A stretch of 64,000 nt of DNA, from the sequence record MH533020.1. The stretch is one strand, 5' to 3'. How positions within the stretch are numbered: position 1 is the first letter of the stretch; each line of letters opens with the position of its first letter. The DNA is from Acinetobacter phage ABPH49. Both the position numbers and the translations under genes were made by a program. Shown here piece after piece: positions 3,768 to 59,847 of the stretch. The notes beneath the pieces were generated by a model. That model saw only the letters and a program-made list of their open reading frames with translations, was not told the origin of the DNA and did not search any database.

Positions 3768-3964
3768 TTCTTTATGAACTCCTTCTCTATCATATTCCCC
3801 AACAAGTAGCAAGTGACAAATACAGCAGCTATTCCAACGAACTTAATGAACATCCACAAGTTATTGTTTATTAGCCATGCGGCACTGATCATCAAAGCTG
3901 CAACGATCATGATCACAATGATAGCACACAACCCATAAAACATACGCTTTAGAAAATTAGACAT
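3764..3964 (-). CDS. Small membrane protein (66 aa, MSNFLKRMFYGLCAIIVIMIVAALMI...)
   Basis: GGAGG RBS 5 nt upstream of the ATG at 3964; two TM helices. The ORF-track N-terminal extension lacks an RBS. Confidence 0.6.
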   Translation of the reverse strand: MSNFLKRMFYGLCAIIVIMIVAALMISAAWLINNNLWMFIKFVGIAAVFVTCYLLGNMIEKEFIKK

Positions 3965-4005
3965 GAAAACCTCCAACATTTAGTAAAGATCCGTTATAAT
4001 TAGGA

Positions 4006-4044
4006 GATCAATAATGACGACCGGTTAGGGAGTTATTATTGATC
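4006..4044. promoter_or_regulatory. 10/11-bp inverted repeat GATCAATAATG ... TATTATTGATC separated by about 17 bp (candidate operator in the leader of the leftward operon)
   Basis: Seen directly in the sequence between the 4153-4533 gene and the small membrane-protein genes. Confidence 0.3.
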
Positions 4045-4152
4045 GAATAATTATCATGAGCGACCAGCGGGAGCGAGTGTTCTTATGTTAATACTTGTGT
4101 TCCTTTTTAAGAACACCACTCCACGCCGATCTTGTAGCTGTTGACTACAACA

Positions 4153-4533
4153 TCATCTCTCGAGACGCTTGGTGAACTTCCTCACCGCGTTGTCAACCTC
4201 CTCATCATCGGTACCGGCCTGCCAGTGGATAACGAGAAGTGATCCCAACTCTATCATCTCTCGGTCCACGTCGTCAAACCTTTCCGTCAACATTTGGATC
4301 AGATCCTTCTCACTGTCCTGAACGTCGTCTGGATAGGTGAAACTGTTGAACTTGACATACGTGTCTTCGAATCCATCACTGAACTTCCGCTCAATTTGGA
4401 AACCTTTCCCGTTGGCCGTGATGTTGTACACGATGCTTGACTCTTCCCCTGAGTCTGGGATATCCGTTACTGTGAAGATCCCGTACATCCCTGTACGAAC
4501 GGCGATTGCTTCGCCAGATACGTTTCTTGCCAT
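4153..4533 (-). CDS. Hypothetical protein (126 aa)
   Basis: ORF with a GGAGA RBS. Confidence 0.6.
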   Translation of the reverse strand: MARNVSGEAIAVRTGMYGIFTVTDIPDSGEESSIVYNITANGKGFQIERKFSDGFEDTYVKFNSFTYPDDVQDSEKDLIQMLTERFDDVDREMIELGSLLVIHWQAGTDDEEVDNAVRKFTKRLER

Positions 4534-6383: not shown

Positions 6384-7661
6384 CTATTTGAATGCACTCG
6401 CCATCGATGCATATCGCGCCATGTACATCGAGACGATATTCGACAGGTCTTTCACTTTTCGCAGCAAGCTGGTGATCAGGTTATCGCCACGCAGTGGGTT
6501 CATGTCCAGAATCGCCTCTTCCTCTTTGGCAACCTGACGCATCAGCTTCATGGAGACAGCAATGATCGAGTCCTTGGCTTCATGGATGTGGTTTTTCATC
6601 ATGAATTTCAGGAAGTTAGCTACACGACTCAGGAACTCGTCGTTGCTGTACTTGTCGATATTCATCACATCTTTCTTCAGCTGGCGCAGGCAGTAATACA
6701 CCAACACGGACACCAGATCGATCTCGTTAGGTGCCAGTTTGTTTTTGTGCTCTGTTACCTTCCCGCTGAGTACGTCCTCGGCGTCTGGAAGCTTCTTAGA
6801 CCGCACGTGGTGGTCCATCAGGGCAGTTACCATGTCTGAACCAACCAGACCTTGAATAGCCACTTCTGCCAACTCACGGTCCAGCTCTCCGGCATCATAA
6901 TCATCGAGAACATTGCCGCAGTCTACCAGTTGGCGAGGTGACGAGAAGCATGGCCCTTCGAAGCCTTGTGTACCAACCAGATGGCCGGTATAGATTTTGT
7001 CCGGGTTTTTCTTGATGAAGGTTACGACGCTCTGGTGCACGTTCTGAGGAACAGCGAAGTCCTCGATCCACACAGTTGCGTTATAATCAACCTCAACAAT
7101 CATCATTCGGTTAACCAACGGACCCAACAGCTCGGTTGTTGCACCGTTGTCGCCCGGGCGGTTACCAGCACCGATAAAGACGGACTTCGGGAAGGTGAAC
7201 TCGCCGATACGGTGATCCAGCATGATCTGGTATGCCGCCTGTTGACACGCCGGGCTGGCGTTTGTCAGCTCGTCAAGGAAGACGAATCCGCGCCAGTTTG
7301 GGTCGGTAGGCCAGAAGCTTGGCGTTGCGTACACGGTTCTGACGATAGTCTTTCCGTTCTCGACAACCTCAACTGGGATCTGCACACCGGCCAAGTCGGC
7401 AGGTTCTTTATCCGACAGGCGGATATCACAGACTGACCCCCACGACGTACCGATGTAATCTGGGAACATCTCCGCCGCGAGTTGGGCAATCTTTTGGGAT
7501 TTACCAAGACCGGCACCGCCGAAGAAGAAGATCGCCTTGCCAGTTTTGGCACAGTGTTTGATCAGGGGTTCCATCTGGCGCATGGTTATGCGACGAGTGA
7601 AGATGTTTTGCTTTTTGTACTGAGCCACAATATTTCCTCTTTCATGTGAATGAGGCCCCAT
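6384..7661 (-). CDS. MoxR/CobS-like AAA+ ATPase
   Basis: Walker A GGAGLGKS, Walker B VFLDELTN, sensor/Arg-finger region AGNRPGDNG. Lies directly upstream of the VWA protein. The start is uncertain: ATG at 7661 with an AAGG RBS, while the track uses a TTG at 7688. Confidence 0.8.
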   Translation of the reverse strand: MGPHSHERGNIVAQYKKQNIFTRRITMRQMEPLIKHCAKTGKAIFFFGGAGLGKSQKIAQLAAEMFPDYIGTSWGSVCDIRLSDKEPADLAGVQIPVEVVENGKTIVRTVYATPSFWPTDPNWRGFVFLDELTNASPACQQAAYQIMLDHRIGEFTFPKSVFIGAGNRPGDNGATTELLGPLVNRMMIVEVDYNATVWIEDFAVPQNVHQSVVTFIKKNPDKIYTGHLVGTQGFEGPCFSSPRQLVDCGNVLDDYDAGELDRELAEVAIQGLVGSDMVTALMDHHVRSKKLPDAEDVLSGKVTEHKNKLAPNEIDLVSVLVYYCLRQLKKDVMNIDKYSNDEFLSRVANFLKFMMKNHIHEAKDSIIAVSMKLMRQVAKEEEAILDMNPLRGDNLITSLLRKVKDLSNIVSMYMARYASMASAFK

Positions 7662-7906: not shown

Positions 7907-8102
7907 AGATGCTCTCCAAGTCTAACCACTGATCAAGACCAACAGCCTTTCCATCGGTCTTCCGGTATTTAGTAATCTTGCCAGTTGAGCACTGGACCGC
8001 ACTGACCCAGTATTTCTGACCCCCGTCCCGCAGTTGCTCTGACCAACCCCACCCGAGGGTGTTGCTGATCTTGCCTCTGTGAGTGAATTCTTTCTTAGCC
8101 AT
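7893..8102 (-). CDS. Hypothetical protein (69 aa, Trp/Gly-rich)
   Basis: ORF with a GGAGG RBS. Confidence 0.55.
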   Translation of the reverse strand: MAKKEFTHRGKISNTLGWGWSEQLRDGGQKYWVSAVQCSTGKITKYRKTDGKAVGLDQWLDLESIYESR

Positions 8103-8156
8103 TATTTACCTCCAGAACAACCCCAACTCCGCCGCAAGTTTGGCATGGGCCAACCT

Positions 8157-8447
8157 TCATGTCCGATTCATCATAGAAGAATCCTTGGTGGCACCCATTT
8201 CCCCGGCAAACATGGGCTTTAGCTTTTTTCGTTGCCGGATGATCCAGAATCCACTGTGACCACCTTTCCCAACCTCCTCGAGGTAACCTTTGGAGATCAG
8301 GCCTTCCGCCACCTTTCCGATTTTAACAGGTAACAGGCAGTCCCCGTCCCAATACTGGGTTTTTCGACGAGGACTGGCCTCTATCTCCCAGCCAAATACA
8401 ACAGCAGCTTGGAGGAAACTTGCCTCGCGTTTGTTAATCTTGCTCAT
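8157..8447 (-). CDS. Hypothetical protein, possible winged-helix fold (96 aa from the ATG at 8447)
   Basis: MSKINKREASFLQAAVVFGW...; 1-nt TGATG overlap with the HD gene stop. Confidence 0.45.
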   Translation of the reverse strand: MSKINKREASFLQAAVVFGWEIEASPRRKTQYWDGDCLLPVKIGKVAEGLISKGYLEEVGKGGHSGFWIIRQRKKLKPMFAGEMGATKDSSMMNRT

Positions 8448-11301: not shown

Positions 11302-11555
11302 AAAAGTTACTGATTCTGGTCACCGCCGTTCTGCTGTCTGGCTGCGATCCAACAACAAGGGACGTCAGTGGGACATTTGCAATCCCACAGGAGCTGAAGG
11401 ACAAAGGCTGTACAATGTACCGCATGAAGAATGAGTACGCAGAGGCTATTTATGTCCTGTACTGTCCGAATGCGAACACAACAACGCAGCTGCAAGCCAA
11501 GCATCCCGCAAACGGATCAGTCATCAATGGTGTGTATTATGAAGAAAACCATTAA
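11298..11555 (+). CDS. Predicted lipoprotein (85 aa; signal peptide with LLSGC lipobox)
   Basis: MKKLLILVTAVLLSGC...; GAGGAG RBS; ATGA overlap. Confidence 0.65.
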   Translation: MKKLLILVTAVLLSGCDPTTRDVSGTFAIPQELKDKGCTMYRMKNEYAEAIYVLYCPNANTTTQLQAKHPANGSVINGVYYEENH

Positions 11556-11760
11556 GTATGAGTACCGGATTGCCCGGTTTACGGTGTCTCTATATCCGAC
11601 CCCGAGAATGTCTTTCCGTATAGAGCGTCGCCGAACCGATAAGTACCTGTTTGTTTTCCCATACGCATGGGTGCCGGTGCGGCACAACGCATGGGTAACA
11701 ATCTCTGGTGTTGGGTGCTGCTTAGTCCCTCCCGAGGGGGGATTACTTTGCGGAGTATGA
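11539..11760 (+). CDS. Possible small basic protein (73 aa)
   Basis: In-frame part of the track ORF 11431-11760 beginning at an ATG that overlaps the previous gene's end. Weak RBS. Confidence 0.3.
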   Translation: MKKTIKYEYRIARFTVSLYPTPRMSFRIERRRTDKYLFVFPYAWVPVRHNAWVTISGVGCCLVPPEGGLLCGV

Positions 11761-11897
11761 AACTTTGGAGGAGGCCGTGGATTCTATTAAAAAGGCTCTT
11801 GACAAGCAGACGGATCCCGAGGTAACATTAACCTACTTTGACGCAGCCGGTAATAAAATCGGCTCTGAAAAAGAAGGAACTGACCTATATTAAGGCC

Positions 11898-11961: not shown

Positions 11962-12969
11962 ATGACTCTGCAAACTCAAATCTCTACTATCAAAGATGTA
12001 AACCGCGCTTATGGCTACACCGATTGTGGCTCTCTGGTCCGCAAACTGGGTAACAAGAAGCTGAATGCAGCTGACCGAAACATCGCGTATGACCTGAACT
12101 TTGACGACCTCCTGATGATGGGTTATAAACTCTCTGGCAACGGCACCTGTGACTATACCGGCTTACCTTTCTTCGGTACCGATAACGAAGCCTTCGCCCC
12201 GACCATCGAGCGTATCGACGACTGCAAGGGCTATGTCCGTGGCAATATCGCCATTGTTGGTGCCCGGGCAAACTATCTCAAAGATAAGTTTATCGACAAG
12301 AACCATCAGGACCCTTCCGATCTGGAGCTGAGCAAAGACGACATCAAGATCATCAACGCCATGCTGCCGCGTGTACACGCCAAGGGTTATCTGGAAGCCC
12401 TGAAGGGGAAATACATCCCTAACTTCGCAACCGAAGAAGAACTGGTAAAAATGCTGGACGAGAAGTGGTTCTTACCATCACTCCACCGCATCAACGACCA
12501 GCTGGAAGAGATCGCCAAAGGATCTGCTCCAGAGGATGGTAACATTTCCCTTCAGGGCGTGGGTGCGAAACTGGAAGTTCCTGAGGTGGATACCTCAGAA
12601 GAGGTTGATGCAGCACCTCTGGAGATCGACACCTCAACCCCGGCAGAAGATGAAGCAGAGAAGCCTTCTTTGCCAGATGATGTGGAGATTGCCGCGAGTT
12701 ACGCAAAACTCTGCCGGGCACTGGGTAAAGTGATGACTGTGAATATCACCTTCAGCCAGTACAAGAGTATCTACACCAACAAGCGTTGCCCGTTCACCGG
12801 TGAAGAGTTGACAGAGCGTTACCCTCTGATCCTCGACCGATCGTTGCCTCTGGAGTCTGGCAACGTGAAGATGACCAGCAACCGAGTTGGGCAGGCAATG
12901 AACGAATTTATCGACGCCACAGGCCTGTCTGTTTTCGAACTGGCTAAAAACCTGAAGAAGTTGGCGTAA
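11962..12969 (+). CDS. Hypothetical protein with two degenerate Endonuclease-VII/HNH-like repeats separated by an acidic linker (335 aa)
   Basis: Repeat 1: CDYTGLPFFG...PTIERIDDCKGYVRGNIAIVGARAN. Repeat 2: KRCPFTGEEL...LILDRSLPLESGNVKMTSNRVG. Pattern C..TG...(D/E)R.D...G.VRGN...V.AN, but the catalytic His pair is missing. Confidence 0.6.
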   Translation: MTLQTQISTIKDVNRAYGYTDCGSLVRKLGNKKLNAADRNIAYDLNFDDLLMMGYKLSGNGTCDYTGLPFFGTDNEAFAPTIERIDDCKGYVRGNIAIVGARANYLKDKFIDKNHQDPSDLELSKDDIKIINAMLPRVHAKGYLEALKGKYIPNFATEEELVKMLDEKWFLPSLHRINDQLEEIAKGSAPEDGNISLQGVGAKLEVPEVDTSEEVDAAPLEIDTSTPAEDEAEKPSLPDDVEIAASYAKLCRALGKVMTVNITFSQYKSIYTNKRCPFTGEELTERYPLILDRSLPLESGNVKMTSNRVGQAMNEFIDATGLSVFELAKNLKKLA

Positions 12970-13000
12970 CACCACAGGGCAAACAACAAAGAGGATAGCA

Positions 13001-13207
13001 ATGAACGAAGAACTGATAGTTGATAGCGGGGAATATCCCGGCGTAGCCACCCCAAAGTTTAAGGTTGGTGACCGGGTACGCGACCTCGTAACTCAAAATG
13101 TGTTTTACATTGCGAGTGCGGTGTGGCAACCAGCCTTCGAAAACTGGTGCTACTCTTCCGGCGAAGATACGATGTTTATCTCGGAAGTCGATCTCGAAGG
13201 GGTGTAA
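13001..13207 (+). CDS. Hypothetical protein (68 aa)
   Basis: AAAGAGGA RBS. Confidence 0.6.
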   Translation: MNEELIVDSGEYPGVATPKFKVGDRVRDLVTQNVFYIASAVWQPAFENWCYSSGEDTMFISEVDLEGV

Positions 13208-13213
13208 AAACCC

Positions 13214-13251
13214 TTGACACTGAAACAGGAGCATGTAACAATGCTCCTGTT
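13214..13251 (+). promoter_or_regulatory. Promoter-hairpin module: TTGACA-N17-(TGt)AACAAT with the -10 inside the loop of an 11-bp perfect stem (AACAGGAGCAT/ATGCTCCTGTT)
   Basis: Seen directly; shares the ATGTAAYAATGC core with the module at 34371. Confidence 0.45.
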
Positions 13252-13276
13252 CTCACATAAACCCAAGGAGTTATAA

Positions 13277-19680: not shown

Positions 19681-20118
19681 ATGCGATTATGTGCCACTCT
19701 GTTGGCCTTTACACTGTCTTTGGCACCAGCTTTATCGTATGCCCAAGAGAGTGCAAAGAAACCCCATCAGCGCGTCATACACACGTGCAGCACTAAAGAC
19801 AACTCGACGTATGCCCTTGCCTGCAACATCTACAAGGAGGCCGAAGGAGAGGGTCTGGAGGGGCAAATGGCGATCGGTTTTGTGACGATCAACCGGGCGC
19901 AGCATGATAAGTTCCCGACGTCGGTCCGAAAAGTAGTTTACCAGCACAAACAATTCAGCTGGACAATCTACAAAAACGGGTATAAGATTCGTAATCAAGA
20001 GGTGTGGGAACAGAGCATTAAAATCTCTAAGTTCCTGATAAAGATAAGGAATATGCCGGTGCTGTATAATTACCTTGACAACACACATGGTTCCCTGTAC
20101 TTTCACACCACGCAATAA
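19681..20118 (+). CDS. Secreted SleB-like cell-wall hydrolase (signal peptide + Hydrolase_2 domain); endolysin candidate
   Basis: N-terminal signal peptide MRLCATLLAFTLSLAPALSYA. LACNIYKEAEGEGLEGQMAIGFVTINRAQ matches the SleB/CwlJ catalytic region. GGAGG RBS. Confidence 0.7.
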   Translation: MRLCATLLAFTLSLAPALSYAQESAKKPHQRVIHTCSTKDNSTYALACNIYKEAEGEGLEGQMAIGFVTINRAQHDKFPTSVRKVVYQHKQFSWTIYKNGYKIRNQEVWEQSIKISKFLIKIRNMPVLYNYLDNTHGSLYFHTTQ

Positions 20119-20194
20119 AGCCTTACTGGTCAAAGTCTTTTAAGAAGACAGTGGTGATCGGTAACCACCAGTTTTATAAACTAAAGGAGCCATC

Positions 20195-20437
20195 ATGAAA
20201 GGTCGTCTGTTCAAGTCCCTCAAGTCACTGCAAATCGTTGCAATCTTCCTTGCACCAATGGCGATTTGGATCTTCGTGGGACAGTTCGTCGCAGGGATGT
20301 TTTTCTCCGGCGTGTACGCTGAACACCCAAGCATCGTGCCGTTTATGTTCATGGCTGGGTTTGCAGTTGGACGCATCGCAGAGTTGGTAATGTGCGGCAT
20401 GGTGGAAGTATTCAAAAGAAAAGAGGGGATCGAGTGA
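20195..20437 (+). CDS. Small membrane protein (80 aa, 2 TM)
   Basis: AAGGAG RBS; hydrophobic helices. Confidence 0.55.
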   Translation: MKGRLFKSLKSLQIVAIFLAPMAIWIFVGQFVAGMFFSGVYAEHPSIVPFMFMAGFAVGRIAELVMCGMVEVFKRKEGIE

Positions 20438-33928: not shown

Positions 33929-34366
33929 ATGGAACATTATTTAGTTTCTCACAAAGACGGGTTCAAGGGTATTCAGGACATCATTACGATCTGCAACAAT
34001 GGCGACCTCCTTACCTATTCCAAAGAAACCCGGTGGGTGAAGTGTCACCTGTGGTCTGAAGATTACATTCGTGAGCACGGAGAGCGGATCTCCCGCTATT
34101 CGTTGAAAAGTTCAGGCATCACTCCGCCAGTCCGAGATTTTAAGGATCTGGCTTGGGAGTGGAATGAAGAGCGTCAAGAATACCATGCAGTTGCCCACAT
34201 TCAGGGCTATGTAGACCTGATTATCTTCCACGATGGGTCTGACTGGTGCCTGCATTACGAAGACCGGGACCCTAGTGAGCTAATCTTCAAAGGTGAGTTT
34301 TATCAGCTTCAAGATAAGGCCCAATCTCTTCACGAAGAGTCTTTGATGGCTGAATTCTTCGAATAA
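33929..34366 (+). CDS. Hypothetical protein (145 aa)
   Basis: GGGAGGGG RBS 5 nt before the ATG at 33929. Confidence 0.55.
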   Translation: MEHYLVSHKDGFKGIQDIITICNNGDLLTYSKETRWVKCHLWSEDYIREHGERISRYSLKSSGITPPVRDFKDLAWEWNEERQEYHAVAHIQGYVDLIIFHDGSDWCLHYEDRDPSELIFKGEFYQLQDKAQSLHEESLMAEFFE

Positions 34367-42614: not shown

Positions 42615-43295
42615 ATGTTATTTAATCGCAACGAAGTCGTATTTGGTCGCACCATCGAGAAGCCATCTCAGGATGACATCAAGAACACAATGGGCCTGTG
42701 GAACGCATCAGTCGAAGACGCCATCAAGTTTGGTGGGGACGTTACCAGAGCTGCCATTCAGGCCATGAACCTGCGTGGAGACTACAAGCACATTGTTGTC
42801 GATGTCAAAACCCACATGCTGATGCCCAACATGATCCCTGCGATCCCGGGCTGGCACACTGATGGCGTACCGCGCGGTGCAGACCTGAACCCGGCCAGTA
42901 AAGGTGACCCGAACATCTATGCACAGGAAACCATGCGTAGCCCTCGGTATCACCTTCTGGTCACCGGGGGCAACTGCCCAACTCGCTTCATCCGTGACCG
43001 CGATATCGAGATCGGTATCGAGAATGGTCATAACCCTAAGCTCTACTCTGACATCAGCGCTTATGTCAAGCTTCGCGAGGGCCGGGGTTGGTTTGATACC
43101 TACGACGCGCCGGACTCTCAGGTGGTCGAGTGGGATTGGTGGGAATTGCACACCGCACAGCGTGCCCGGGGTCATGGTTGGCGCTATCTGATCCGCGTAA
43201 CAGAGACGGACCACATTGCACCGCAAACGGATCTTCGTCAGGTACTTCGCACACAACAACAAGTCTACATGCCTACGGAGGTGTTCGGGTGGTAA
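42615..43295 (+). CDS. Putative 2OG-Fe(II) oxygenase / cupin-like protein (226 aa)
   Basis: PGWHTDG (HxD) with a distal His in HGWRY, consistent with the HxD...H iron-binding facial triad. Weak, motif-only call. GGGAG RBS before the ATG at 42615. Confidence 0.45.
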   Translation: MLFNRNEVVFGRTIEKPSQDDIKNTMGLWNASVEDAIKFGGDVTRAAIQAMNLRGDYKHIVVDVKTHMLMPNMIPAIPGWHTDGVPRGADLNPASKGDPNIYAQETMRSPRYHLLVTGGNCPTRFIRDRDIEIGIENGHNPKLYSDISAYVKLREGRGWFDTYDAPDSQVVEWDWWELHTAQRARGHGWRYLIRVTETDHIAPQTDLRQVLRTQQQVYMPTEVFGW

Positions 43296-43555
43296 AGGAA
43301 AAGTATGAAATACAAATGTTCGACATAGTCAGGATTATCTGTGTCGACGAACACGGGTTTATGCGGGACGTTGTTAAAACAGGTGTCCCGCTAGATGAAG
43401 ACCTCGTTGTCGTTGAGATTTACCACGACATCCGCTTCGGCTGGCGATATGTGGTAGGTGAAGGGTCTTATCCTTTTGACGTCTACGATGTTGGGGAGCG
43501 GGAGATTTACGAAGTTAATCATCCCCCGGAGGTATTCCATGTCGCAAAATACTAA
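43289..43555 (+). CDS. Hypothetical protein (88 aa; GTG start)
   Basis: GGAGG RBS 7 nt before the GTG at 43289. In-frame part of the track ORF 43130-43555. Confidence 0.4.
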   Translation: MVKEKYEIQMFDIVRIICVDEHGFMRDVVKTGVPLDEDLVVVEIYHDIRFGWRYVVGEGSYPFDVYDVGEREIYEVNHPPEVFHVAKY

Positions 43556-43868
43556 ACTGGAATCTCGGATCTTCATGATCCTTGCTGTTGCCGGAATGGC
43601 TGTGGCGGGAATGCTTTGGGCAGCTAAGGATGAACCGGAGAAGGTTTTTGAACCGCCGATCTTACCGGCTGAGATTTCAAGACTCTCTGAGATCTGTACC
43701 AAAAACGGCGCTTACTCAAGCTACCTGATTATCGAGAAGTCACAACCTCGAAAAGTCATGTGTAAGTTTGAGCGGCGCGTTAAATCGACCGACTCTTTGG
43801 GCGGTCAACACTGGAGTCGTGAGGTCTACACTTACGATGCTAAACAACTTGAGAAGGAGAAAGTATAA
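43539..43868 (+). CDS. N-terminally membrane-anchored protein (109 aa)
   Basis: GGAGG RBS 6 nt before the ATG at 43539; TM helix IFMILAVAGMAVAGMLWAA. Confidence 0.55.
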   Translation: MSQNTKLESRIFMILAVAGMAVAGMLWAAKDEPEKVFEPPILPAEISRLSEICTKNGAYSSYLIIEKSQPRKVMCKFERRVKSTDSLGGQHWSREVYTYDAKQLEKEKV

Positions 43869-44242
43869 TGCTGGAGATCACTGCACTCGTCGTGGTGTTC
43901 CTCGTAATCCTGTTCGCAGCGATTGCGGGTACACCGGCGGTTATCGCCAAGAAGCGTAAGCACCGCCAGTTCCCGGCCATTGTGGCTGTCTGCGTGGTGG
44001 CTTACATCTTCGTAATCTTCAACCTTCAGATCGCGGGCATCTTGTGGCTCGCCGCGCTGATTTGGTCACTGACAACACCGTCCACTGTGATTCAGGGTCC
44101 TAAGGGTGAGCAAGGCCCTCAGGGGTTCATGGGCCAGAAAGGTGATAAGGGTGACCCGGGAAAAGATGCAATCCCGATGTCAAAAGCCGGGAACCTGTAC
44201 ACCAGTCTTCACAACGGGGGCAATGTCAACGTCAATGGCTGA
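43868..44242 (+). CDS. Membrane protein with a collagen-like Gly-X-Y tract (124 aa)
   Basis: Two or three TM helices followed by GPKGEQGPQGFMGQKGDKGDPGKD (seven GXY triplets). AAGGAGAAAG RBS. Confidence 0.6.
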   Translation: MLEITALVVVFLVILFAAIAGTPAVIAKKRKHRQFPAIVAVCVVAYIFVIFNLQIAGILWLAALIWSLTTPSTVIQGPKGEQGPQGFMGQKGDKGDPGKDAIPMSKAGNLYTSLHNGGNVNVNG

Positions 44243-44318
44243 ATTAAAAGAGAAAGGGTCCGTACTGACGTATTACGAACGTGAAGGTTTTTCGAAGCAA
44301 CCGGAGGTAAAGAAATAA

Positions 44319-44498
44319 ATGAGAAAACTGCGTGATTTTAAGTGCCCACAAGGACACGAATTCGAAGCATTGGTTAACGATGACGTGCTGAGCATGTTGT
44401 GTCGTCAGTGTTCGGATCTGGCACACCGTCAGGTATCTGCACCGGCGGGATCTGGTAACGCAGCTCACGGTTTCATGGCTAAAGCGAGGGAGCGTTGA
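44319..44498 (+). CDS. Small zinc-ribbon protein (59 aa, MRKLRDFKCPQGHEF...CRQC)
   Basis: Not in the ORF track. GGAGG upstream; CPxG...CRQC Cys pairs. Confidence 0.45.
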   Translation: MRKLRDFKCPQGHEFEALVNDDVLSMLCRQCSDLAHRQVSAPAGSGNAAHGFMAKARER

Positions 44499-44712
44499 TG
44501 AATGAAGGGCTGAGAGATTTGTTCGAGGAAGCGGTCATGGAGAAAATCAATATCTCCAAAAAGACCCTCGTCGGGATGCGTACCAACTCGGGTACAGAAA
44601 CTCCACCATCTCGGGGATTGACTACAACCTGATGTGGGAGATGTGGCTGAGCGGCCACATGGCTGCTTGGCGAGAGGTTGATGCACTGGTAAAACGTGGG
44701 AAAGGACAATGA
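44498..44712 (+). CDS. Gene split by an apparent -1 frameshift at the CCAAAAAG run at about 44557-44563 (frame-A 44 aa + frame -1 continuation of about 50 aa)
   Basis: The start is coupled to the upstream stop (TGATG). The -1 frame stays open to a TGA that overlaps the next gene's ATG (ATGA). One extra A in the A5 run would give a single 71-aa ORF. Confidence 0.45.
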
Positions 44713-44978
44713 AGAACAGTAAGGTTGCATCATGCCTCCTGTTTGCTCTCTGGGTCCCCGTGGCGCTGTTAATTTGCCTTGCCCGTCTGGTTGTGTGGGT
44801 TTTGGCTAAAGCAGCCTACAGGCTCAACAGAGGAGCTTGGTGGGCGCATGGCAAAGTAGGTAAGCTCGGCAATTCTGTCGGAGAGTGGTTCTACGAATCG
44901 GCATGTTTCGAATGGCTGAGGATTAAGCACGCGGCCAGTCGGAAAAAGGCCCTTGATGAGTGGATGGCTAATGACTGA
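44709..44978 (+). CDS. Membrane protein (89 aa)
   Basis: Hydrophobic N-terminus; ATGA overlap. Confidence 0.55.
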   Translation: MKNSKVASCLLFALWVPVALLICLARLVVWVLAKAAYRLNRGAWWAHGKVGKLGNSVGEWFYESACFEWLRIKHAASRKKALDEWMAND

Positions 44979-45248: not shown

Positions 45249-45614
45249 ATGGCTAAGTCAGATTTCATCGAAGGCATGATGTTGGATTGCGGTTTTGACT
45301 GCGTTTCTGCGGAAAAGCATATCTCGGTTAGCGAAGAGTACAAGTACGTCATGGTGAATCTCGAGTTCATCGACTCTTCGAAACGGGCATTCAAGGTCAG
45401 CTCTTCGTATGTCGTTAACCGTGGTGGCAAGATCTCCATGCAGGAGTCAGCCAAGGTTGCCGCACAATACCTCAACGACGGCAAGGTGATCAACCGTGAG
45501 CGGATCGTGGCGTACAACGAAGCAGAGTTCACTGAAGAGCTGCTCAATGCAATCAACGACATCAACGAGCTGTTCGAGCAGGCAGACGTTGAAGGGAAAA
45601 AGGTGTACATGTGA
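45249..45614 (+). CDS. Hypothetical protein (121 aa)
   Basis: AGGAGG RBS 8 nt before the ATG at 45249. Confidence 0.6.
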   Translation: MAKSDFIEGMMLDCGFDCVSAEKHISVSEEYKYVMVNLEFIDSSKRAFKVSSSYVVNRGGKISMQESAKVAAQYLNDGKVINRERIVAYNEAEFTEELLNAINDINELFEQADVEGKKVYM

Positions 45615-46095
45615 AGCAGTACGACATCAAGGGTTGGATAAAAAACGCCGGGGGCCTAAGAATCCCTCACGGATTCATCAAGGGTGAGTTGGTTGATGTA
45701 ATTCACCGAGATGGTGAGGTGTTTTATAGTCTACCGGTCGGAAATAGCTCTGCTACAGACTTCAAACATTGGTCGCGACATAGCGGTGCAGATGTTATTT
45801 ATTTCAGGAAGTCATGTGGAGAGTCAGCAGGAAAAGAGAAAGTCTTTTTCGGGAAGCCGTTGCTGGAAGCATCGAAGGAGTTATCGCAGAGGGTATTGAA
45901 CCGGCGGATAAGGAGAGTAAAGAGGTGGATCACACAGAACTGCATGTGGATAGTCGTACATTCCACGGCCTTATTGAGGCTATCTCTCGAGATAAACCAA
46001 ACACGTGGTCGTTCAATGCGGGCGGAAAATCACGCCCATATCGGACACTGACCATCGGGAACACCATCTTCATCGAATTAACGGAGGAAAAATAA
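45611..46095 (+). CDS. Gene split by an apparent -1 frameshift at the CTTTTTC run at about 45844-45850 (track ORFs 45611-46051 and 45814-46095)
   Basis: The upstream frame reads protein-like up to ...KEKVFF, then the -1 frame reads protein-like (...REAVAGSIEGVIAEGIEPADKE...) to a TAA overlapping the next ATG. One extra T merges them into about 161 aa. GTG start with GTGA overlap. Confidence 0.45.
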
Positions 46096-55113: not shown

Positions 55114-56511
55114 TTAGGCTGGTGTGCCATCCATCTTTATCCAAGACATTGGACTGTTAGATTTTAGGCAGATTGGGATGCCAAGCACTTTGTCGAAGAA
55201 AATCATTCCCTCGGGTCCCGTTGTCGGTCTAGTTTGTCCAGACATCGGGATAGACCTTGCAACTTGGTCTATAAAGGCCTTCACCTCAAACCAGTCCACA
55301 TTTACCGCATGGTTTGTCCCATCTGCATTGGAGTTTGTCGCTCTAGACCAACCGATCACCGCGTAGTTGGCCGGGGTTGTTAGCCCCAAGGCTGTAGGTT
55401 TTGAGCTGAACACGAAATCCCCAGCCTTATAAAACGATCCGACAGTTGGCATTTGTTCAGAGAACAAGACTGAATTAGCTGTCGTATGCCAAGAGCCGGA
55501 GCTTCTTGACCGAATGTCGACACGGCAGGTGCTGTCTATTGTTACTTTGCCACCACCTGCCCATCTGTACCCCTCAAATCCAACACCTGTTATCGTTGTT
55601 CCGCCAGACATCGTCAGTGTACCTGTTGAGTCGTCTGACCACACCCCTCTTGAGTTGTCAAGGCTGAGCTGTATCTCAACGCCCTGTAGGTGTACATCGG
55701 AGTTAGCACCAGATCTGGCCCTAAATACCGCACGCTGTGTACCTGCCTTACCGACGTTGTAAAACTTGCAGTTGCTTACCCGGATATGACTGCCGAAACT
55801 GATGGCATCTCCCGATAGGTTATTGAACGTTGCATTGTTCAATACCACCTGAGATGCTGGAGAGGTCTGATAAAACAGACATCCACTCAAGTCCGTCTCC
55901 ACAAGGCCTAATGTTCCTGCCGAAGCACCTGTGAATTTACCCCCATCAACTACAAAAACCCCACCGTAGTTCTGGGCAAATATCGGGCGACTACAGATAT
56001 CTGCATCACACTCTACCAAACGGAAAGAATCGGACGACCCATTGTATCTCTCCGACCGGAAGTAGTAGGCAATCTTGTATCCGAAACAAAATAACCTGAA
56101 CGCCGCCGCGAAGTCTACCCTGCCGAAATGAAATCCTGTGGCGTTATCAAAAATCCACTGCTTCAAGTCCTGAGCGTATTCATTTTCCTTCCCGAGGTAG
56201 ATGTTGTAATTCCAGTGTATGTCTGAAATCCTTGGGATATCTAGACACCTGTCAAGAGACAACCCTCGACCTATTGGAGCGCCAACAATGTTACGTATAA
56301 CTATCTTACTGGAACTACCGATATTTGTAGGTGTCTGACCACCAAACATCATGGCGTAGTATGAATTTCCTACGTTCAGGTCCTCGAAGAGTGATTCAAA
56401 TCCAGACCCAGAGAGCAGAGGTTTGTACGCAACCACTCCCTTTTTAGATAGGTCATAAGTCTGCTTCGAATACCAGAAGCTCACCCCAGAAACTACGTTT
56501 CTGGACGTCAT
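55114..56511 (-). CDS. Tailspike, right-handed beta-helix (pectate-lyase-like) body (465 aa as annotated; probably the C-terminal part of a split gene)
   Basis: Beta-helix-like repeats (NATFNNLSGDAISFGSHIRVSNCKFYNVG...). The ATG at 56511 has no RBS, and the same frame is open with no stop for a further 85 nt upstream, merging into the 56597-56848 ORF after a 1-nt shift. Confidence 0.7.
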   Translation of the reverse strand: MTSRNVVSGVSFWYSKQTYDLSKKGVVAYKPLLSGSGFESLFEDLNVGNSYYAMMFGGQTPTNIGSSSKIVIRNIVGAPIGRGLSLDRCLDIPRISDIHWNYNIYLGKENEYAQDLKQWIFDNATGFHFGRVDFAAAFRLFCFGYKIAYYFRSERYNGSSDSFRLVECDADICSRPIFAQNYGGVFVVDGGKFTGASAGTLGLVETDLSGCLFYQTSPASQVVLNNATFNNLSGDAISFGSHIRVSNCKFYNVGKAGTQRAVFRARSGANSDVHLQGVEIQLSLDNSRGVWSDDSTGTLTMSGGTTITGVGFEGYRWAGGGKVTIDSTCRVDIRSRSSGSWHTTANSVLFSEQMPTVGSFYKAGDFVFSSKPTALGLTTPANYAVIGWSRATNSNADGTNHAVNVDWFEVKAFIDQVARSIPMSGQTRPTTGPEGMIFFDKVLGIPICLKSNSPMSWIKMDGTPA

Positions 56512-56596
56512 GAAGAATTGCGAGGTACTGACATCCTCATGGTCAATAATGAACGTGAAGCTCCCTCGCCCGCCAGCGCAAATAATCCCAGTCCCG

Positions 56597-56848
56597 TCAG
56601 AAGATGAAATTACTTGTTCTCAGGGTTACCTTGCCGCCAGAGGGGGCTGAGATTGTCCTCCCTGTATCACTCGAAGCCTTGATTGCTTGACGAAGGCCGT
56701 CATCGCCGGGTATCACGCCGGAAACATCGCAGTAATCCTCCAAGTGAATTACACCGGTCAGGAGGTGAAGCTTATCCAGATCTTGCTGCAATTCCCCGGT
56801 TGAGGACGCTGTCTTGATCATCCATGCTGGAACTTTGGTTGTTGACAT
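56597..56848 (-). CDS. Tailspike N-terminal fragment (83 aa) terminated by TGA; separated from the beta-helix body by an apparent +1 frameshift
   Basis: Strong GGAGAG RBS. ...VIPGDDGLRQAIKASSDTGRTISAPSGGKVTL resembles the pectate-lyase-fold N-terminal cap (GDGxTDDT.A.Q.A.....GG.V). Deleting one T near 56597 fuses it to the downstream frame (...NFIFDGTGIICAGG...). Confidence 0.55.
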   Translation of the reverse strand: MSTTKVPAWMIKTASSTGELQQDLDKLHLLTGVIHLEDYCDVSGVIPGDDGLRQAIKASSDTGRTISAPSGGKVTLRTSNFIF

Positions 56849-56893
56849 ATCTTTCTCTCCTTTACCGCCCCGAAGGGCGGCAATGTTGTCTCG

Positions 56894-59230
56894 TTATGCG
56901 GCTACCACGGTATTATCGTAGAATGTTCTCCACGCTGCCCCGTCGTAGAATACTGGGACTCCAGTCCCTGCACCCACTGCTTCTCCTGCACGCCGTCCGT
57001 TGGTTGCGTACATCATTCCGCCGACAGATGCTGAGGTCGGGAGTTCTGCAACTTTTACAGAGGCTGGGGCCACCTCACGTTTAGATACCAAGCTCCCGTT
57101 GTTGGTGATCCTCAAAGCCTGAGAGGTGTTTGGTGTTGAGAAAGCCAAACCTCCGTGAGAACCTCCACCAGAAACAATACACTTATTACCCGAACTGTCC
57201 TCAAGTTCGAGGTTGATTGATGCACCCCCGGGACCGGTTCTGACAAAACCAACACCTTGGGCGCTGTACGTCACGACCCTGATCGGTGCCCCGCTCTCGC
57301 CACTGGTACCAAACTCAAGGGTGTTTGATGCAGAGTTATGATAAATCAGACTCTGCCCTACGGTACTAGTGTCCCCGCCGATACGTACCCTGAACCCTTT
57401 GCCGAGGTGCAGCACCGAATTCGGCTTCAAGATTCTTACGTTTCTGTTCAGGTCTACATGCCCGCTCTCACCCCCATAGCTCTGGTCGTAAGGACGGATG
57501 TACAAAGCAGGTGTTTGAGCACCGGTTCCGTCGTAGTTATACAGCGCAAACCCCCGGTTACCAATCCCAGACCCATATGTTCCAAGGGCGAGATTGTCCG
57601 CCGACATGTTAAACACGCTCTGACCGTTGAACCTGATCCTTGGGTCATACAGCGTATTTCCGTCCAACCTAATCTCTGCCGAAGATGCAGCAGCGGTACC
57701 CTTCAAACTTGCAAGGGGCTGCGTCATCGCCTGTTTGTTGCCGGTATTGAACTCAATAACCATGCAGTAGACATCGGAACGGGAGTCAGAGTCATCAACC
57801 TTTGAGGGGTATGCAACAAGGATCCTATCCCCGAACAATACTGCGTGTTGTACACCACCAACCCCAGCTGCTGCCTGATACCCCGCACTTGTGCTGGTTA
57901 GCCTTTTCACTTCAGATCCTGTATCGAAATCTCGGGAGAATGCAGAATCCAATGGGCATTTCCTGACATAAAGGCCAGATTGCACCCCTTTAGGGTTTGC
58001 ATTATCGTATCTGTTCGAGTAAAAGAACCAGACAGATTTGAAGTCTGGGGTGAAGACCGGGGTAATTGGGTTTACACTGAACGGCATCGGGAATTCCGCC
58101 GCGTCAGAAATAGACTCAAAACCTTCTGTGGCTACCCATGCTTTGCACTTCGAGATGCCAACGTTCTGAGAACGGGACACAACAAGGATCTGGCCCGTGT
58201 CAACCCTACGGAGGAAGTTAAGTTCGCATTGAAGAACCGCCCCGTTGTTATTGTTGTTCGCCGCAGACAGCAACACCTTAGTAGTGTAAGACCAGTCCGT
58301 AGGATCCACGATCAGGATCCCGAGGCTCCCAACCGCGTCGTGGTAACCGCAAGCAAATTTCCCATCCCCCAAAAGGACAAAGCCGTGGTAAGCGACGATG
58401 TCCCTTCCCGTGTCTGGAAGGAAATCAATGGCTTTTACTTCTTGCCACTGCACTCCGTTATTTGACGAAGTGTAGATTGAATGACGGATTGGAGCTTGGT
58501 CATTTGTGCCTTTTCTGAATCTCACAATTGAAACCAAGGTCCCATCAAGCAAGGCCCCGAGTGACCAAGCACTTGCAGCCTCTGTGCTTGTTCTTGGTGC
58601 AATGGTTCTTACCTTTCCGAAGTCAATCCCGTTTCGTGTGCCGACAATCATCGCATCACTAGCAATGGTTCCGTGACCGGAGGCCAAGTTGAAGCCGAAA
58701 TAAGCCCGATCCCCGACAACAACACCCTTCCCCTGCGGCCAGTTTGAGAATCCAACACCAAAGTCGGTAACCCGTGTGGAGAAGTTACCGAGAGCCTCGA
58801 CAGGGTCTTGGATCATCTTCTGGACTTCGTCGTAAGTTGGGCTGGGGTCAGACGAAGAAAGTCCAACAGCCACCAGAACTTCCTCGCCAACTTTCAGCGC
58901 ATCCTCAGGTTTAAGGACAATCTTGTTGTTTTGTACAGAGTACGCCCCAAGCTCTTCAAGTTGGAGAACACCCCCTCTGAACAGTAGGGCCTCCTTGAAA
59001 ATCAAGGAGGGTGACAACTCTACTTCACCGCCCGTGGCTACGTATGTCCAAGTTTCCAGTTTCCCGCCTGAACCTGAACCTCCAGAGATTTTAGACGCCT
59101 TGACCTTCTTTGTCACCCCTTTCTGGTCAACCACGAAGACATCATCAGCTCCGATGGTGCTCGCCTCTGGAAGGTCTGTGATCTTAATCAGAGTCAGGTC
59201 TTCTGCACCTACATCAACCAAAGTTCCCAT
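56894..59230 (-). CDS. Large tail spike / fiber protein with a sialidase-like beta-propeller module (778 aa)
   Basis: Asp-box/BNR-like YTSSNNGVQWQEV and further S-x-D-x-G-like repeats in the central region. N-terminus typical of baseplate-attached spikes. GAGAGAGG RBS. Confidence 0.65.
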   Translation of the reverse strand: MGTLVDVGAEDLTLIKITDLPEASTIGADDVFVVDQKGVTKKVKASKISGGSGSGGKLETWTYVATGGEVELSPSLIFKEALLFRGGVLQLEELGAYSVQNNKIVLKPEDALKVGEEVLVAVGLSSSDPSPTYDEVQKMIQDPVEALGNFSTRVTDFGVGFSNWPQGKGVVVGDRAYFGFNLASGHGTIASDAMIVGTRNGIDFGKVRTIAPRTSTEAASAWSLGALLDGTLVSIVRFRKGTNDQAPIRHSIYTSSNNGVQWQEVKAIDFLPDTGRDIVAYHGFVLLGDGKFACGYHDAVGSLGILIVDPTDWSYTTKVLLSAANNNNNGAVLQCELNFLRRVDTGQILVVSRSQNVGISKCKAWVATEGFESISDAAEFPMPFSVNPITPVFTPDFKSVWFFYSNRYDNANPKGVQSGLYVRKCPLDSAFSRDFDTGSEVKRLTSTSAGYQAAAGVGGVQHAVLFGDRILVAYPSKVDDSDSRSDVYCMVIEFNTGNKQAMTQPLASLKGTAAASSAEIRLDGNTLYDPRIRFNGQSVFNMSADNLALGTYGSGIGNRGFALYNYDGTGAQTPALYIRPYDQSYGGESGHVDLNRNVRILKPNSVLHLGKGFRVRIGGDTSTVGQSLIYHNSASNTLEFGTSGESGAPIRVVTYSAQGVGFVRTGPGGASINLELEDSSGNKCIVSGGGSHGGLAFSTPNTSQALRITNNGSLVSKREVAPASVKVAELPTSASVGGMMYATNGRRAGEAVGAGTGVPVFYDGAAWRTFYDNTVVAA

Positions 59231-59847
59231 CAGTTTCCTCTCTCAATTAGTTTGCCGTCTTGGGTAGAGATCCCTCTACCGTCTTGTGTGCCAATACCAG
59301 ACCTTGTTGCCGTGATTGGGTCTTGGACTGACCATTTGTTATACCATGTTGCATCACCGTAGATCGGGAGTCGGAAGTTGATCAAGTAGTACAACTTATT
59401 CTGCCATTTAATCCACTGGTTATCCCCGCACAGGGTTACGCCATCTTCTGGGGGCGTTGGATAAGCAAATTGGCTACTTCCTGTGAAGGCGATGTTGATG
59501 TCTTCACCTTCGTTTGTGGTTACCGTCATGTAGCATTCGTAGCTACGACTAGAGGCTTCCATTGCAGAGTTAAAGCTGGTAATATCAATTACGTCCGGCT
59601 CTTCTCTGACCGTTTGTTTGATTCTTCCATCCAGCACCGACTTCATGACCTTTTTGGAAATGAAAGTCCGGTATGGGAACCCAAAGGATTCGTCGAAGAA
59701 CCAGTCACCTGCCCAAACGCTGAATTTGATCCACAGTCGCTGGCGCAGGGAGATTTGGTTGGAGGTGATGAGGTTCAAACCATCACCCGAGATATCCAGA
59801 TCCCCGGTTACCGGGTCCATCTGGAGATCAGAAAACAGAGTTGGCAT
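59230..59847 (-). CDS. Baseplate protein with a gpW/gp25-like N-terminal domain (205 aa)
   Basis: N-terminus ...DPVTGDLDISGDGLNLITSNQISLRQRLWIKFSVWAGDWFFDESFGFPY follows the gp25/W pattern. AAGGAGA RBS; TGATG overlap. Confidence 0.55.
   Translation of the reverse strand: MPTLFSDLQMDPVTGDLDISGDGLNLITSNQISLRQRLWIKFSVWAGDWFFDESFGFPYRTFISKKVMKSVLDGRIKQTVREEPDVIDITSFNSAMEASSRSYECYMTVTTNEGEDINIAFTGSSQFAYPTPPEDGVTLCGDNQWIKWQNKLYYLINFRLPIYGDATWYNKWSVQDPITATRSGIGTQDGRGISTQDGKLIERGN

Follow-up and report, generated by a model that had tools for sequence, protein, structure and literature searches.

The window analyzed here is a stretch of 64,000 nucleotides from the genome record of Acinetobacter phage ABPH49 (MH533020), and all positions refer to it. 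At 44498-44712, on the plus strand, it carries a small gene whose reading frame is interrupted (Table 1). Frame 0 encodes MNEGLRDLFEEAVMEKINISKKTLVGMRTNSGTETPPSRGLTTT in 44 codons and ends in a TGA at 44630-44632, while the -1 frame has no stop codon from 44506 until the TGA at 44710-44712, as an earlier first-pass annotation of this sequence had described. Its account of the two ends of the gene also holds: the TGA of the upstream gene (44496-44498) shares bases with the ATG at 44498-44500 (TGATG), and the final TGA overlaps the ATG of the next gene at 44709 (ATGA). The A5 run near which it saw the frame change was correctly placed at 44558-44562, inside CCAAAAAG, but the distance from the AAG codon to the frame 0 stop is 23 codons, not the 20 codons past the run that had been counted. 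The product of the upstream neighbor has a weak, subthreshold match to a zinc ribbon.

Table 1. Features of the interrupted gene and its neighbors, and isolated one-base indels between the window and Kashira coding sequences
Feature	Position	Strand	Kashira counterpart	Remark
Upstream coupled gene, 59 aa	44319..44498	+	KASHIRA_00300 (ortholog)	
5' fragment ORF, 44 codons + TGA	44498..44632	+		Deposited as AXN57952.1 (ABPH49)
AAAAAG, codons K21-K22, slip site suspected in first-pass annotation	44558..44563	+		Not the break
Lesion, one C of ancestral CC gone	44587..44588	+		From Kashira alignment
-1 frame segment, native residues 31-71 (LGYRNSTISGIDYNLMWEMWLSGHMAAWREVDALVKRGKGQ) + TGA	44587..44712	+		DNA 100% identical to Kashira
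Frame 0 TGA (44630-32) overlapping ATG 44632 (TGATG), then 26-codon ORF	44630..44712	+		
Downstream coupled gene, 89 aa, hydrophobic N terminus	44709..44978	+	KASHIRA_00320	Protein identical
Indel, -C in window (CCC to CC)	8235		KASHIRA_02410	Not polarizable, without outgroup
Indel, +G in window (G5 to G6)	11736		KASHIRA_02480	Window broken; ChuuTotoro backs Kashira frame
Indel, -G in window (GG to G)	20113		KASHIRA_02660, cell wall hydrolase	Window broken
Indel, -C in window	34194		KASHIRA_00080/00090	Kashira broken
Indels, +T and -A in window	43522 + 43701		KASHIRA_00270	Kashira broken
Indel, -C in window	44588		KASHIRA_00310	Window broken
Indel, -C in window (GCC to GC)	45871		KASHIRA_00350	Window broken

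The closest relative of ABPH49 is phage Kashira (PMC11126041). At this locus, the Serratia phage Kashira carries a single intact coding sequence, KASHIRA_00310, of 216 nt and 71 amino acids, and phage ChuuTotoro likewise has one intact coding sequence of 225 nt and 74 amino acids; both phages are Vequintavirinae. Aligned over the 216 nt of the Kashira gene, the window shows a one-base gap and is identical at every other base, the A5 run included: Kashira reads ACCAACCTCGGG and the window reads ACCAACTCGGG, that is, ACC AAC CTC GGG versus ACC AAC TC GGG. What the window lacks is a single C from the CC dinucleotide at 44587/44588, a site 26 nt 3' of the A-run; C44587 completes the Asn30 codon in frame 0 and opens the Leu31 codon in the -1 frame. 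When the Kashira protein was searched against the window with tblastn, the match switched from frame 2 to frame 1 at residue 30. Codons 1 to 30 of the 5' fragment encode residues identical to residues 1 to 30 of KASHIRA_00310, and codons 31 to 44 (SGTETPPSRGLTTT) are out-of-frame junk, leaving a 44-amino-acid stub that carries ...MRTNSGTETPPSR. The intact 71-amino-acid gene is also present in two independent read-level (Logan) assemblies, SRR19221879, which is identical to Kashira at the locus, and SRR19221883, a third variant with two mismatches from Kashira. Searches of IMG/VR, the JGI metagenomes, and the GTDB genomes with exact and degenerate patterns yielded no independent copies of either allele. 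The earlier proposal that the true product spans both frames is borne out by the orthologs, which are single proteins of 70 to 75 amino acids, collinear with frame 0 and then with the -1 frame. Inspection of the orthologous locus in relatives, which the first-pass annotation had recommended, was the decisive test.

The repaired 71-amino-acid sequence has no match in Pfam. It matches PHROG 29036, a family of small proteins labeled "ead/Ea22-like" from lambdoid and P22-like prophages, with an E value of 1e-18 over residues 6 to 59; the conserved domain of this match comprises ∼55 amino acids, and the family, annotated as function unknown, has no Pfam model. A profile search retrieved 46 cluster representatives from phages and prophages of Enterobacterales. 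Continuity across the break was judged from an alignment of the 23 intact members among these 46, and all 23 read through ...ISK(S/T/E/K)TLxGxR(T/E)xxGYRN(S/T)TxSGxDYN... in one frame. The block that the family has in common with the repaired window protein is ERDLFExWVMxxICISKSTLxGLRTxxGYRNSTLSGxDYNxMW, and in an alignment of 34 sequences, the invariant residues are R6, F9, E10, S20, K21, T23, L24, G26, R28, G32, Y33, R34, N35, G40, and W47. The product encoded in the window diverges from the family directly after MRTN, and its homology ends past residue 30. Among deposited phages, tblastn found homologs in P22-like Salmonella phages (SE1 gp08) and in Stx1-converting lambdoid phages (H19J orf228), where homologs of this type lie in the early region and adjoin ead/Ea22-like genes, DUF551, xis, and int; a longer protein of phage vB_KsaM-C1 has the domain as its N terminus. 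The window gene is similarly placed among small early genes, but it belongs to a 150-kb virulent Vequintavirinae myovirus instead of a temperate lambdoid phage, and, unlike the family members, it is interrupted, with no intact ORF through the domain.

An AlphaFold2 model built from the family alignment (mean pLDDT of 86.5) has helices at residues 3 to 16, 21 to 26, and 43 to 69, with the conserved GYRN loop joining helices. The break at residue 30 precedes both this loop and the helix at 43 to 69, so that, according to the model, over half of the compact domain would be lost. Foldseek searches against PDB and BFVD returned only the family itself and ABPH49's own stub, with no neighbor of assigned function. 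Judged from these sequence comparisons, the gene is an ortholog of KASHIRA_00310 with a one-base deletion, which we call nonprogrammed because the orthologs are intact in a single frame, Kashira has the same A5 run, and conserved residues lie across the break.

AAA-AAG, a pair of lysine codons known to be slippery, is found in dnaX and in IS elements; in the dnaX-type signal, A-AAA-AAG is accompanied by an SD-like element upstream and a hairpin downstream. The first-pass annotation had offered two explanations located at the A-run, namely, programmed -1 slippage on CAAAAAG or one A missing from a 6-A run. According to the first of these, dnaX-type frameshifting on C-AAA-AAG (44557-44563) would yield the full-length protein, and the gene does share with dnaX an AAA-AAG in the zero frame and an open -1 frame. 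A GGAG is located ∼15 nt upstream. However, the identical CCAAAAAG and the same GGAG, in the same codons, are present in the unbroken gene of Kashira, its sister phage, where no shift is required. The heptamer starts with C instead of the A of dnaX, it is located 26 nt upstream of the real frame change, and the site is not conserved: ChuuTotoro has TCC AAG TCA in its intact gene, with no A-run, and the run is absent from 21 of the 23 aligned family members, in which S, T, or E replaces the second K. Within the aligned family, the second lysine that makes AAA-AAG is confined to Kashira and ABPH49. A shift at the A-run would lead to ...ISKKDPRRDAYQLGYRN..., with DPRRDAYQ instead of TLVGMRTN, a segment with four invariant residues for which every relative uses frame 0; the trans-frame product (ISKKDPR) would thereby lose T23, L24, G26, and R28. 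Regarding the hairpin, the downstream 77 nt fold with -26.3 kcal/mol (z = -1.74), a stability matched by 12 of 200 shuffled sequences, and by this measure the downstream structure is not significant. Since AAAAAG occurs 62 times in the window (∼1 per kb), its presence inside a 133-nt ORF is unremarkable, and at the true break (44587/88) there is no slippery sequence. We therefore regard programmed slippage at CAAAAAG as ruled out by the nucleotide alignment with Kashira and ChuuTotoro and by the family alignment, and it is the least probable of all the readings considered. The loss of an A from an A6 run is ruled out as well, given that Kashira also has A5 and that the lost base is a C located 26 nt downstream. 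The suggestion of a homopolymer undercall or deletion was right in kind, as one base is indeed lost, but it named the wrong base and the wrong position.

An alternative view of the locus is that it holds two genuine separate small genes of 44 and 26 amino acids instead of one broken gene. Each piece has its own start codon, the TGATG at the junction and the terminal ATGA would permit coupled translation, and the 44-amino-acid piece was annotated by the depositors. We nevertheless consider this extremely unlikely, given that the final 14 residues of the 44-amino-acid piece match nothing, that the split falls inside the most conserved block of the domain, and that no relative has this arrangement. 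The first-pass annotation had named two separate genes in relatives as an observation that would speak against a single product, but Kashira, ChuuTotoro, and all 23 aligned intact members have a single ORF, and no relative with the same two-ORF layout was found in phage records, IMG/VR, metagenome contigs, or genome contigs.

Returning to a single gene with a one-base deletion, ribosomes that initiate at the ATG at 44498 would add 14 out-of-frame residues to 30 native ones and stop at 44630. Neither the invariant GYRN loop nor the long C-terminal helix is present in the resulting stub, so inactivation of the gene is the most likely outcome. By coincidence, the stop codon of the shifted frame overlaps native Met46 (ACC TGA TG, 44630-44634), and the ORF that begins at this in-frame ATG (44632) runs from native Met46 to Gln71 and terminates at the ATGA shared with the next gene. 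This overlap of the new stop with an in-frame ATG makes a restart of translation possible: termination-reinitiation at TGATG may feed the downstream gene and thus limit polar effects, and it could give the 26-amino-acid C-terminal helix (MWEMWLSGHMAAWR peptide) while the ATGA-coupled gene is kept translated. It is conceivable that the lesion is real and the gene still alive, although we think this very unlikely. Either UGAUG reinitiation (44630-44634) would let the 44-amino-acid piece and the 26-amino-acid helix jointly keep some activity, with the 89-amino-acid gene staying coupled, or spontaneous low-level -1 slippage on AAA-AAG would supply a trickle of full-length hybrid protein.

The whole window was aligned to Kashira, with ChuuTotoro as the outgroup for polarity, and 51 indels were listed; the one-base indels in Table 1 are the isolated ones inside Kashira coding sequences, with one divergent gene left out. 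Over most of the 64 kb, ABPH49, although deposited as an Acinetobacter baumannii phage, is 95 to 99% identical to a phage of Serratia marcescens that came from German sewage. The block at 55131-59314 has no nucleotide match in Kashira or in any deposited phage. Two minus-strand ORFs (55114-56511 and 56894-59230) encode proteins of 465 and 778 amino acids in the tail module, which are probably the two predicted tailspikes discussed in PMC11126041, and the block looks like a receptor-binding-protein swap in an otherwise 95 to 99% Kashira-like genome. Separately, a large noncoding stretch at ∼730-1300 contains a repeated motif, AAAAATTTTT(T)CGCCCTCCCC, in which the window and Kashira have T-runs of different lengths (indels at 1082, 1215, and 1282); these repeats may be terminator- or promoter-like elements.

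Several genes other than the KASHIRA_00310 ortholog are split relative to Kashira. The homolog of KASHIRA_00350 (161 amino acids in Kashira and a single frame in ChuuTotoro), at 45611-46095 on the plus strand, is divided into ORFs 45611-46051 and 45814-46095, with its break 1.3 kb downstream of the KASHIRA_00310 lesion. A gene for a SleB-type hydrolase (PF07486, Hydrolase_2), at 19681-20195 on the plus strand, is frameshifted and cut to 145 amino acids, with the loss of 24 of the 100 Pfam domain positions; on either side of the break, the protein is 100% identical to that of Kashira, and ChuuTotoro has an intact gene. Two small hypothetical genes, at 11527-11890 (plus strand) and 8098-8447 (minus strand), are also split across frames. 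At two other loci, it is Kashira that deviates. The window (33929-34366, plus strand) and ChuuTotoro have one ORF of ∼145 amino acids where Kashira (3847-4285), with one extra C in a C-run, has the overlapping genes 00080 and 00090. At 43289-43868 (plus strand), the window contains two intact genes, one of 88 amino acids (43289-43555) and one of 97 amino acids ending at 43868, the latter matching CHUUTOTORO_02790 in one frame, while KASHIRA_00270 (158 amino acids; Kashira 12790-13266) is a chimera that arises because Kashira lacks a T and has one A too many (A5 to A6).

In the coupled module itself, the homolog of KASHIRA_00290 (44235-44318, plus strand), two genes upstream of the lesion, has undergone a clean in-frame deletion of 273 bp (91 codons), flanked by the imperfect microhomologies CGTATTACG and CGTACTACG (protein ...TYY / ...AYY). 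A remnant of 27 codons is left, with the coupling to both neighbors kept. This deletion is unquestionably real, as a base-calling artifact of that kind is impossible, and its presence two genes upstream suggests relaxed selection on this module.

Given these data, the question is whether the missing C reflects a mutation in the phage or an error in its record; all the remaining readings together account for a small residue of the probability at most. We see about an even chance that the deletion is a genuine mutation that arose very recently, either in the lineage of ABPH49 or in the stock that was sequenced; it would then count among several lesions that this phage group carries in small, dispensable early genes. 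The chance that the record contains a consensus or assembly error, with a true CC, an intact gene of 71 codons, and AXN57952.1 as an annotation artifact, falls somewhat short of that, and we lean slightly toward the mutation. In favor of an error, the gene is otherwise 100% identical to that of Kashira, and at least three further polarized single-base breaks (11736, 20113, and 45871) are found in the same 64 kb, among them the hydrolase break, which is flanked on both sides by perfect protein identity, as would be expected of consensus errors. The breaks in the window mostly consist of a G or C lost or gained within short runs, no independent assembly contains the 44-amino-acid product, and ABPH49 was deposited in 2018 as a direct submission without a publication, for which the papers citing the record give no sequencing method. 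Exact look-ups for ABPH49's own reads or assemblies gave zero matches, whether with the 44-amino-acid stub, the window-specific 465-amino-acid tail protein, or the shortened products of the hydrolase gene and of the KASHIRA_00350 homolog.

On the other hand, the CC dinucleotide is a weak context for homopolymer miscalls, and the indels are unevenly spread over the coding sequence. Small indels number ∼11 in ∼3.5 kb of intergenic DNA versus 7 to 8 in ∼51 kb of coding DNA, and all uncompensated ones fall in coding sequences for fewer than 200 amino acids (P of ∼0.01 to 0.04 under uniform placement, in a test that rests on 4 to 6 events and on a threshold picked after the data were seen). The only pair within a large gene is compensated: a +1/-1 pair at 6450/6469, 19 nt apart, lies in a minus-strand replication-factor gene (KASHIRA_02380 homolog, 426 amino acids), after which the frame is regained, the protein being 97% identical overall. 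The intergenic excess and the restriction of uncompensated indels to short coding sequences indicate that the indels are not placed like random errors but bear the mark of selection. Moreover, Kashira is itself frame-broken at two loci (34194 and 43522/43701), against four to five breaks in the window; the ratio of window to Kashira lesions is ∼4:3, and there is no clear excess in the window. If the Kashira sequence is accurate at these two loci, small genes of this phage group would indeed undergo genuine frameshifts; around the KASHIRA_00310 gene, an independent read assembly exactly reproduces the Kashira locus.

In either case, the locus is a small accessory gene with a frameshift lesion of an ordinary kind, caused by a single base. 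It matches other frameshift-disrupted phage accessory genes in having a single-base indel relative to intact orthologs and no conserved recoding signal and in being a small early gene; similar lesions affect other genes in its own genome and in that of its sister phage. Nothing essential distinguishes it from such genes, the sole curiosity being the new stop that overlaps an in-frame ATG. The case holds no new recoding biology, and it teaches that, before the orthologs have been checked, an AAA-AAG close to a frame break should not be taken as a sign of programmed slippage. Its value lies in the correction of annotation: AXN57952.1, with its 44 amino acids, is a fragment of a conserved 71-amino-acid protein, at least three other genes in the 64-kb stretch are broken likewise, the SleB-type hydrolase among them, and KASHIRA_00270 and KASHIRA_00080/00090 also resemble frameshift products. 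The host assignment of ABPH49 deserves a check, and the ABPH49 and Kashira records call for caution when they are used for protein family or comparative genomics work.
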